From Candidatus Methanophagales archaeon (GTDB lineage: Archaea > Halobacteriota > Syntropharchaeia > Alkanophagales > Methanospirareceae): a DNA stretch of 25,407 nucleotides. The stretch covers positions 1 through 25,407 of the forward strand of contig DAOUUS010000001.1 of assembly GCA_030668065.1 (NCBI GenBank), read 5' to 3'. Of this stretch, positions 17,631 through 19,404 are shown in pieces (the stretch's first letter is position 1; the number at the start of each line of letters is the position of its first letter). The position numbers and the translations under genes are program-made. The notes beneath the pieces are model-generated. The model was not told where the DNA came from and did no database searches. It worked only from the letters and a program-made list of their open reading frames with translations.

Positions 17631-19404
17631 GATGCCCTTCCACGCTATTGAGAAGCCCGTCACCATCAGTATCCTGCAACGAAATAGCATACCAGTTCAC
17701 GAAATCGCCGATATTTCCTGGGAGCACATCGAAGTAGGTGGTATCTGGGTCGGTCTTGGTCGTACTTGTGTTCGATTTACCCGAGCAAATACCCAAAATG
17801 CATTCGTCATAATAGAATTTATAATTAGCAGATAACCAGGAAGTCAGCGGGAGGTTCTTCATGCCTTTATTTGGCATTAGCCACAATCCGGTATAGCACT
17901 TTTCTTTGTACCATGTATCGTGGTCTTCGTGACTGTCGCAATAATGCTCGTAACTGCCGCTCTCAAACGTAGAATCATCCTTATGGTATTCATATTTCGG
18001 ATGAATATAGCTATCTTTATAGTCATCGTGATCTCCATGATCTATACCACGCTTCGTTTCCGAAGCCTTAGCCCAGAACCAGCTTTTTATTTCTATCTTG
18101 TCGCCTACTGTTAATCCATTATCATCATAATCTTCTATATTCAACGTTGTCCCTCCCGGTTCAAGCTCAAGATTGACCCTGATTATGAACTTAACAAGCC
18201 AATCTATAAGCTTTTTCATCAGCCAACCTGACCCGTGGCCAAAAATACTGGCTATAATATCGGCTATGACAATCAATAGCGCGATTGCCCAGCCCACGAC
18301 TGGGATACATCCAATAGCCACGAGAATACCAACAAATATTAGCTGCATTACGGCATACACAGCACCTAAGGCAAAACCAAAACCCGACCATCCTTCCGCT
18401 TTGGCAATCGCGATGAATGTATAGATTGCGACAGCAGCTATTATTATCCAGCCCACGACCTCCATCACTTCGGCAATTTTGCTGAGTTTTGATGCCCATC
18501 CGGCTTCTTCAACAATTGCTCCTTCGCTCATCACCGCTTTGAGTTCGTCCATATTTTTAGTCGCTTTTACAGTGCGGTATTGAGTCGTGAGCTCACCCAA
18601 ACGTGGACTCAAATTCGCCTCCTCTCCCATTTCGCCCGTAAGCCCATCCATAATAGCATATCTGGCATGTAGAAATGCTCTCTTCTCTAAAGACTTAGCT
18701 ATAATCTCGATAAGTGGACCTGCCAGATGCTCGAAACCACTATAACCTTTATGCATCCACTCAAGTACCTCATTTTCCTCTGGATCCTCGAATTCAATTT
18801 CGTGGCCGTCTACCCCGGGTAGTGTTGTTTCTCCAAAACTCGCTATCAAAAGTAGCATCAGCATATTCGCCTTTTTCTCTATATCATCCCCTTCCCAGAT
18901 CTTCACATCTCCTATAAGTTCATCAAACCCAATAATTTCGTTTGTGGTAGTATTATACCAGCTCATCTTGATTGACTTCGTCGTTACCACAGATCTGTTG
19001 GTTAAATCAACATTGTATTCATTTCCCTGAATATACGGGGTGCCCATGGCGCTATTGGCAGAGACATCAGATAGTGCGAAAACGATTGGTAGTATTTTGC
19101 CCTCTGGTAAGCTATCCAGCGCATCTTTTGTCTTGTTGAGTACAGCAATCAATGCCGCATCATGATGCGAGTATGAACTAATGTTAGAGGTGACGCTAAC
19201 GTTATGTTCCGCCAGCTTAGCTGGTGCCTCTAACAGCGTGTTCTGGCTCTTCAAGAATTCATACTTTAGAACCAGGTACGCATTCATAGTCTGGTTTCTG
19301 TCGCCGCTGTAAAACAAACCTGCATCCGCGCCAGAGTTCTCCTCTACGCTGAACCCGGTGAGCATGAAGTCTTCTTTGTAGCGGGCAATGGTGGTTGATT
19401 CTGA

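Follow-up and report, generated by a model that had tools for sequence, protein, structure and literature searches.

What does a cluster of strongly hydrophobic mid-chain helices do in a giant archaeal surface protein, and which membrane, if any, does it occupy? This question is raised by a gene on contig DAOUUS010000001.1 (assembly GCA_030668065.1, Candidatus Methanophagales archaeon). The window, meaning the whole stretch of DNA analyzed (25,407 nucleotides), is the entire 25.4-kb contig; the parent metagenome-assembled genome (MAG) has 1.79 Mb and is 85% complete, and DNA of the contig was detected in marine and seep sediment runs. An original prediction, made from the sequence alone, regarded the helices as a pore-forming or fusogen-like module of a membrane-inserting surface protein. 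Our evidence leans to insertion into the producer's own membrane, an outcome which that prediction had itself listed as counting against it; we give a probability of roughly 45% to the reading that the helices are a colicin-related core residing there.

The gene and the conserved unit that carries the helices are located as follows:

13765..22191, minus strand: giant gene of 2,808 codons including one in-frame TGA, defined from open reading frame (ORF) lists, translations, and Pfam
17623..19410, minus strand: conserved module of about 590 residues (P0001 residues 675-1270; match in its own genome at 17623-19407)

Over the full frame of 2,808 codons, Kyte-Doolittle hydropathy revealed only four hydrophobic features, namely an N-terminal signal-like segment, two adjoining mid-chain peaks, and the C-terminal PGF tail. 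The two adjoining peaks comprise three helices (residues 1236-1325 of the full protein) with a peak hydropathy of 2.5-2.7, and the hydrophobic peptide quoted in the original prediction is encoded at about 18196-18486 of the minus strand.

The stretch of about 576 residues that separates the flanking FG-GAP and ricin domains served as a query against 1.84 billion cluster representatives, and 164 protein clusters were retrieved at E ≤ 1e-3, with 81 at E ≤ 1e-30. The matched proteins are nearly all 1,500-3,700 residues long, and most align across the whole query. The homologue distribution, which had been suggested as a check, is one of at least 164 clusters, mostly from archaea (ANME-1 relatives, Methanolobus, Thermoplasmata, Bathyarchaeia, and Asgard archaea) and from a few bacteria; named carriers are Methanolobus, Thermoplasmata, Bathyarchaeia, Thor- and Sifarchaeia, and MAGs of Chloroflexota and Planctomycetota. 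Occurrence of the module within the phylum is patchy: 17 of 301 genomes have it, and a genome may carry up to four copies; in cultivable Methanolobus strains, the number is 1-4. Existing annotations of the members read only "RICIN domain-containing" or "hypothetical," no model in Pfam or NCBIfam covers the module, and a single-sequence search of PDB with the module gave no match. A DUF2207_C match (E 0.2) and a match of 38 hydrophobic residues to the type VI secretion system (T6SS) effector Bfe1 (E 0.016) were taken as composition effects. In the literature searched, we found no description of the module family or of archaeal colicin-type domains, nor any report of a colicin-type channel domain inside a cell-anchored giant protein. 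The earlier remark that no archaeal system of this architecture has been described is consistent with the unannotated family and with this literature result.

Pairwise comparison of the window gene with P0002, P0165, P0196, P0059, P0195, P0193, and P0158 identified five collinear conserved blocks in members from Asgard archaea to Planctomycetota, Bathyarchaeia and Chloroflexota included. The NHL, ricin, and FG-GAP domains are lineage-specific inserts between these blocks, and the family design appears to be a constant scaffold with swappable binding domains. The module, which consists of an alpha/beta domain, a helical/hydrophobic region, and a beta-sandwich, is the unit common to the whole family, and the three hydrophobic helices (TM1 to TM3) are its constant core. 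In an alignment of 89 modules (A1), the hydrophobic cluster was retained in every one, with mean maximum hydropathies of 2.05, 1.96, and 2.12 for TM1, TM2, and TM3, respectively. A1 also showed conservation of GWS behind TM1, of IPxVGW at the TM2-TM3 junction, of an Asp within TM3, and of a further GW following TM3; P370 and G373 (module numbering) were nearly invariant. Across the family, the module is acidic overall, except for about 50-70 residues preceding TM1. The hydrophobic segment of about three helices that had been claimed is real and conserved, as seen in the Kyte-Doolittle scan, in the 89 modules, and in the helices modelled by AlphaFold2.

AlphaFold2 modelling of A1, with a whole-module predicted local distance difference test (pLDDT) of 83.9, gave the parts listed below with their module residues; where a colicin element is named, it is the one to which the part was aligned or proposed as equivalent:

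18775..19410, minus strand: N-terminal alpha/beta domain (module 1-200); modelled alone, pLDDT 93.5 and predicted template-modelling score (pTM) 0.87
18628..18777, minus strand: three short helices, "H0" (module 212-261); candidate equivalent of colicin helix 1
18487..18627, minus strand: linker, predicted disordered (module 262-308 approximately, pLDDT <50); candidate equivalent of colicin helices 2-5
18397..18486, minus strand: hydrophobic helix TM1 (module 309-338); aligned to colicin helices 6-7
18385-18396, minus strand: conserved GWS loop after TM1; aligned to colicin TG(N/D)W
18310..18384, minus strand: hydrophobic helix TM2 (module 343-367); aligned to colicin helix 8
18295-18309, minus strand: nearly invariant IPxVG turn after TM2; aligned to the colicin hairpin turn tP(l/i)GI
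18244..18294, minus strand: hydrophobic helix TM3 with the conserved Asp (module 373-389); aligned to colicin helix 9
18196..18231, minus strand: amphipathic helix H4 after the second G-W (module 394-405); aligned to colicin helix 10
17686..18195, minus strand: beta-sandwich directly after the helices (module 406-563), with a nearly invariant DDxDxNGLxxGD loop

The similarity to colicins was observed with A3, a profile covering H0 through H4, the helical region. Against 177,635 PDB sequences, its sole match was the pore domain of pyocin S5 (6thk; E 9.5e-6, 29.1 bits, bias 0.4). The whole-module A1 profile again returned this pore domain alone (E 3e-5; next sequence 11.7 bits), with profile positions 251-391 aligned to chain residues 361-497, that is, 137 residues reaching the end of the pore domain. 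Compared with 26-29 bits for pyocin S5, the next best scores were 12.8 bits in PDB, obtained with A3, and 9.9 bits among the 5,846 ORFs of the own genome. Pore domains of colicins E1, K, Ib, S4, N, B, and others were taken from annotated plasmids, and 109 PF01024 proteins were collected with an E. fergusonii colicin-like protein. A3 scored these 109 proteins with a median of 13.3 bits (at least 15 bits in 42 of them; best 25.5), always in one register and always on the C-terminal pore domain, and reversed-sequence controls gave at most 5.9 bits.

Comparison of alignments by hhalign agreed with these searches. Against a colicin alignment of 120 rows, the score was 36.9 (P 3.6e-5, probability 71%), compared with 17 when one side was reversed, at most 21.8 for 30 block-permuted alignments, and at most 15.7 for 30 column-shuffled ones. 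Block permutation keeps the helices and scrambles their order, and the score was lost thereby. Each of three disjoint thirds of the family repeated the match, a global alignment extended over 172 columns (P 4.5e-6), and an independent alignment of 54 rows gave P 2.1e-4 with a probability of 46%. The helices are matched in the correct order, including hairpin 8-9 and the TG(N/D)W loop. Physical properties are also shared: the linker has a family mean net charge of +5.6 and is positive in 81 of 89 members, as the helix 2-5 stretch of the colicin-like proteins is in 107 of 109 (+5.9), and the hairpin hydropathy is 2.0-2.1 in the family and 2.09 in colicins. TM1 departs from this likeness, having a hydropathy of 2.05 vs 0.73 for helices 6-7, which are amphipathic in colicins. 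At the level of profiles, the similarity to the E1/Ia/S5 subtype thus appears significant, replicated, and order-dependent, and we infer that homology of the helical region to the colicin channel domain is probable, although not proven.

Several results weigh against this relationship and against the reading built on it. The profile similarity is one-directional, from family to colicin only: colicin hidden Markov models (HMMs) gave the family no more than 7.8 bits, a level also reached by random ORFs of the own genome (8.2). The Pfam model PF01024 (gathering score 23.4 bits) had no match in the own genome at E ≤ 10; it matched only 2 of 89 members, at E 0.14, and the module itself had no match at E ≤ 10. 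A small mixed alignment of 11 colicins gave an hhalign probability of 0.26%, colicins of the A/B/N/S4 type alone gave no hhalign match, and the probabilities of 46-71% are under the usual confidence level. Hydrophobic segments, moreover, may inflate profile scores. Foldseek and VIA searches of PDB, AlphaFold DB clusters, and ESM Atlas matched the helices to generic hairpins only (Z ≤ 7.4) and not to colicins. Whole-module fold searches gave no match at E ≤ 1e-3, and an ESM Atlas feature search gave no usable match; staphylococcal leukocidins, which appeared as top fold rows, were discarded as meaningless (TM-score 0.1-0.2, root-mean-square deviation near 20 Å). Structure prediction with Foldseek, a check that the original prediction had proposed, therefore modelled the helices but recovered no pore-former fold. 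The predicted likeness to pore-formers was upheld to the extent that the profile and hhalign statistics favor a colicin-type channel, and was not upheld by fold searches or by the Pfam Colicin model.

The failure of the reverse searches, of the Pfam model, and of the fold searches, together with hhalign probabilities of just 46-71%, favors an alternative in which the helices are an ordinary multi-pass anchor, unrelated to colicins, that tethers a giant adhesin mid-chain. The profile similarity would then be convergence on a pattern: an amphipathic stretch rich in lysine, a Trp at the interface, a tight hydrophobic hairpin turning at Pro/Gly, and an amphipathic helix. In hydropathy the helices equal normal membrane spans, no hydrophobic feature other than the module is constant across the family, and the sandwich follows TM3 directly, as in single-pass "helix plus sandwich" proteins of the LEA-2/BatD kind. 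However, such a pattern would need to be common, and no other membrane protein among the PDB sequences or the ORFs searched came near. Block-permuted colicin alignments with the same helices lost the score, the three disjoint family subsets did not, and aligned lengths and linker charge agree with colicins as well. Motifs like IPxVGW are, furthermore, rarely kept by simple anchors across archaea and bacteria. We consider this alternative unlikely.

The topology of the helices depends on the two ends of the protein:

22093..22191, minus strand: signal-peptide-like N-terminus (MHMQKSKGTHIFALFAVVVLIAAALQPAIANP), recognized from hydropathy; homologues start alike
13768..13857, minus strand: C-terminal sorting signal, consisting of PGF, a hydrophobic helix, and a basic tail, with a Pro/Thr-rich linker before it

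The PGF tail matched the Loki-CTERM model (22.8 bits, cut-off 19.9), a related sorting-signal class, no PGF-CTERM model being listed. Archaeosortase A, which would be the expected processor of PGF-type C-terminal signals, is encoded in the genome (G000:C309:844-1635, L007; TIGR04125, 217.7 bits, cut-off 75). By sequence, all the features of an archaeosortase A substrate (PGF, helix, basic tail, Pro/Thr linker, and cognate enzyme) are present. The PGF-CTERM anchor named in the original prediction is accordingly supported by the PGF tail and by the enzyme, but the model matched is Loki-CTERM and not a PGF-CTERM one. N-glycosylation sequons in the N-domain numbered 299 compared with 159 expected, a 1.9-fold enrichment. 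Because of the signal peptide, this enrichment, the extracellular-type domains, and the sorting signal with archaeosortase A, both flanks of the helices must be outside. The linker is basic and poor in sequons (16 vs 34 expected), as a cytoplasmic loop would be; if it lies inside, H0 would have to cross the membrane. The leading candidate from these sequence statistics is a model of four passes in which H0 is the first span; it would suit most members, but not the clade of this protein.

The colicin Ia channel offers a precedent for such an arrangement. During insertion, the 8-9 hairpin enters first; then, at cis-positive voltage, the third and fourth membrane segments are formed from parts of helix 1 and helices 6-7 (PMC2585860, PMC2229546). 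In the open channel, helix 1, helices 6-7, helix 8, and helix 9 are the membrane segments, helices 2-5 (~68 residues) cross to the trans side, and both ends stay cis; three-segment channels also occur (PMC2585860, PMC2229546). From charge and sequon statistics, a topology had been derived independently for most members of the family, and it would be this same open-state arrangement.

Topology also supplies points against a resident core. Three firm hydrophobic helices with both flanks outside give an odd number of crossings, and the fourth pass seems weak, in that H0 is semi-hydrophobic and H4 amphipathic (mean hydropathy 0.92). The maximum hydropathy of H0 exceeds 1.6 in 15 and 1.2 in 48 of the 89 members, and is 0.78 in the window protein. 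The linker of this protein and of its close clade departs from the family in being acidic (-1 to -9); the positive-inside fit of the basic linker thus holds for the 81 members and not for this clade, and the firm spans remain three. The odd number would cease to be a problem if the helices stayed out of membranes altogether, buried as the core of an extracellular soluble domain or of an oligomeric stalk, and the extracellular type of the domains on both flanks would suit this. Against it, three consecutive helices of 2.0-2.7 are joined by loops of 4-5 residues, with an interfacial Trp and with no amphipathic shell in a confident model, and the colicin bundle, the only soluble fold with such a hairpin, was recovered neither by the model nor by the fold searches. 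We regard a buried core as very improbable.

In the reading that we favor, in which the core is colicin-related and resident, the helical region of about 190 residues would be a diverged relative of an E1/Ia/pyocin-S5-type channel domain, and the three helices would be its membrane-embedded core. Each part from H0 to H4 would represent the colicin element given beside it in the list above, TM1 being taken together with the residues immediately before it (K-a-F-g-v-v-G...). The protein would be exported by its Sec-type signal, whereupon the hydrophobic helices would exit the translocon sideways into the producer's membrane and remain there. The large flanks would be outside and the hairpin tip inside, with the basic loop also inside in most members, as in open colicin Ia. 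The module would tether the protein mid-chain, with about half of the family having no other anchor, and the module's conserved intramembrane motifs suggest more than anchoring, possibly a gated conducting element.

Partition into the producer's membrane is what three helices of 2.0-2.7 should undergo, because the protein carries a Sec-type signal. The AlphaFold2 model contained no helical bundle or amphipathic shell to shield them, and the linker was disordered. A water-soluble ten-helix bundle burying the hairpin was, therefore, not seen, the model having three long exposed helices, although a prediction of this type leaves room for a soluble state. Among 58 signal-bearing full-length members, 29 were without a C-terminal hydrophobic segment, so that the module would be their only tether; another hydrophobic segment anywhere in the chain was found in only 4 of the 58. 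That no immunity-like gene is conserved near the giant gene also speaks for the producer's membrane. A difficulty for this reading is that a constitutively inserted colicin-type channel should harm its producer unless it is closed or regulated, and no such control was seen.

It is doubtful, in our estimate, that the family carries a working colicin-type channel, and this estimate covers two forms jointly. One form is a channel resident in the producer's membrane and gated by ligands of the lectin/propeller ectodomains; the other is a contact-dependent weapon or junction that inserts into neighbor cells. The latter comes close to the original prediction: the protein would be displayed through its C-terminal anchor, lectin and propeller domains would bind glycans of another cell, and the colicin-like region would insert from outside into the energized membrane of that cell and depolarize it or, in a variant, weld partner cells together. 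The colicin similarity applies equally to such a pore-former, and the hairpin is as hydrophobic as that of colicins. Colicin insertion is driven by cis-positive voltage, which is the natural polarity of a target membrane approached from outside, and it ends with both flanks cis, a state that an internal domain could also reach. Variable binding domains on a constant killing core would follow a bacteriocin-like logic; paralogues number up to four per genome and are patchy across phyla, and this ANME-1-related organism comes from seep or sediment, where cells form tight consortia. Nevertheless, a Sec-exported chain with such helices should lodge in the producer's membrane, and no amphipathic bundle was predicted to hold the helices soluble. 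About half of the family, having no other anchor, would be released rather than displayed. The pore domain is, in addition, internal, whereas in all colicins known to us it is C-terminal. A conserved immunity-like membrane gene is also missing, as described below, and we regard contact-dependent pore formation as unlikely.

The search for conserved adjoining immunity-like genes, which had been put forward as a check, found none beside the giant gene, and the neighboring genes differ between loci. The helical region is neither C-terminal nor accompanied by an adjoining immunity gene for a small membrane protein. An ORF of 238 residues with four to five hydrophobic segments and no Pfam match lies convergent (tail-to-tail) with the giant gene (L004:4022-4738, plus strand). 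This arrangement occurs in only two genomes, of one sister genus (G021 and G113); the ORF is not adjacent to the giant gene in G150 or in a Methanolobus-like genome, and it was not found in the genome of the window.

The remaining domains of the module were also compared with known folds. For the N-domain, no structural neighbor was found in PDB, the best Foldseek match having E 0.086 and the best VIA match Z 3.6 among 48,161 chains, and the sole return from AlphaFold DB clusters was a family member; it may be an undescribed fold. The beta-sandwich showed a weak likeness of the LEA-2, BatD, and DsbD-N type (TM-score ≤ 0.39, E ≥ 2e-4). Its acidic DDxDxNGLxxGD loop resembles, as far as the sequence indicates, a calcium site near the membrane surface. 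A complex prediction for the N-domain and the sandwich scored 0.00, a value that carries no weight either way.

Beyond the module, the domain order of the giant protein is signal peptide, NHL blades, TSP3 units, ricin trefoil, and FG-GAP blades before the module, and ricin, TSP3, FG-GAP, a TSP3 array, a C-terminal domain, the Pro/Thr linker, and the PGF tail after it. Pfam matches to NHL, TSP3_bac, ricin-B, and FG-GAP flank the hydrophobic cluster, which confirms the lectin and calcium-binding domains that had been noted on both sides. DxDxDG units of the TSP3 type number 18 (Pfam TSP3_bac, 92.2 bits). The two units that had been likened to the calcium site of binary-toxin B components are simply 2 of these 18 repeats, no binary-toxin family appeared in the Pfam results, and the analogy fell. 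The term "fusogen-like" was dropped as well, since a fusion peptide is a single segment of shorter length and lower hydrophobicity, and the searches gave no match to one.

The frame of the gene is broken at a single position:

21625..21627, minus strand: in-frame TGA in place of the Trp conserved in an NHL blade (FITE*GSEG), the sole break in the frame

This TGA splits the signal-peptide piece (22191-21628) from the remainder of the gene. At position 21625 of the plus strand, contigs of runs X2 and X3 have C, which restores TGG, and the source run X1 has T. The TGG populations comprise one sister sample and one ~95%-identical population, and the source sample has TGA at a depth of ~23. The TGA is a recent, population-specific nonsense variant of the window copy. 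Because the codon reads TGG in near-identical populations, the full-length exported protein exists there. The claimed signal peptide is present upstream in the same frame, but in the window copy it is cut off by the TGA.

The neighboring genes in the window are archaeal and include TFB, a FlaI/TadC-type filament motor, TrkH, and IGPS. A secretion ATPase (T2SSE) with two TadC/FlaJ-type genes (T2SSF) at 3885-7387 of the plus strand represents an archaeal type IV filament motor cluster; it lies ~6 kb from the giant gene, and no connection between them was seen. The closest named relatives of the ATPase belong to Methanophagales (ANME-1) genomes, with 68-72% identity. Just upstream of the giant gene, a BrnT-type toxin ORF (22636-22911, plus strand; Pfam 35.1 bits) is followed by two small ORFs without a family match.

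Colicin-type channel domains are known as the C-terminal warheads of released proteobacterial bacteriocins. The domain described here would, if the link is confirmed, be new in its position, in its hosts, and in its apparently constitutive membrane state. Cell-cell contact is central to the ecology of methane-cycling and Asgard archaea, and a colicin-related core would provide a first handle on a large, wholly unannotated family of surface proteins of roughly 2,000-3,700 residues in these organisms. It would also provide a natural protein apparently fixed in an arrangement that colicins reach only transiently at channel opening. The open state of the colicin channel is structurally still unresolved, a problem expressed as the "too little protein" paradox (PMC2585860). 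If the core is related to colicins, the order of origin comes into question, that is, whether the toxin or the membrane module was first; should the family carry a working channel, the pore domains of colicins and pyocins would have branched off, soluble and released, from an ancient integral-membrane module, or the descent would have run the other way.

Among known systems, LEA-2, BatD, and DsbD-N proteins share with the family a sandwich placed right after a membrane helix, with weak fold matches over module residues 341-572; this likeness is one of common sandwich shape, and the TM-score of at most 0.39 does not demonstrate kinship. The Myxococcus surface proteins CglD and MtsD, which have TSP3 repeats, share arrays of the DxDxDGxxDxxE calcium-type repeat. 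Their NCBIfam matches are partial and far under the cut-off (121.8 of 400 bits and 70.1 of 800 bits), thus a similarity of repeats only, and they contain no hydrophobic module comparable to that of the family. The T domain of diphtheria toxin and the delivery domain of large clostridial toxins are conceptually similar, with mid-chain hydrophobic helices and lectin-like binding parts, but these toxins are released and soluble, and neither domain gave a sequence or fold match in the searches run. Archaeosortase-processed surface glycoproteins (PGF-/Loki-CTERM) share the signal peptide, sequon-rich ectodomains, the Pro/Thr linker, and the tail of PGF, helix, and basic residues; unlike them, about half of the family is without a C-terminal signal. 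To our knowledge, the known glycoproteins of this class are anchored at the C-terminus only, and none has been described with a conserved mid-chain hydrophobic module.

The closest comparison is with the colicin channel itself (PF01024; E1/Ia/K and pyocin S5, 6thk). The family differs from colicins in that the equivalent of helices 6-7 is a full hydrophobic span, and in that the region is internal, lying between the alpha/beta domain and the sandwich with ~1,500 residues after it. It further differs in being exported by a signal peptide where colicins are released by lysis, in having no adjoining immunity gene and no predicted soluble ten-helix bundle, in failing the Pfam model, and in its hosts, which are archaea and non-proteobacterial bacteria. 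Nevertheless, the elements come in a shared order over 94-172 aligned columns of the profile. First are lysine-rich amphipathic helices and a K-x-[FL]-x-x-x-G helix; a G-W loop then leads to two hydrophobic helices separated by a P-x-G turn, and an amphipathic helix ends the series. The length of about 190 residues, the hairpin hydropathy, and the net charge of the helix 2-5 stretch are shared as well, and the topology that we infer for the family would be the one published for the open state of colicin Ia.

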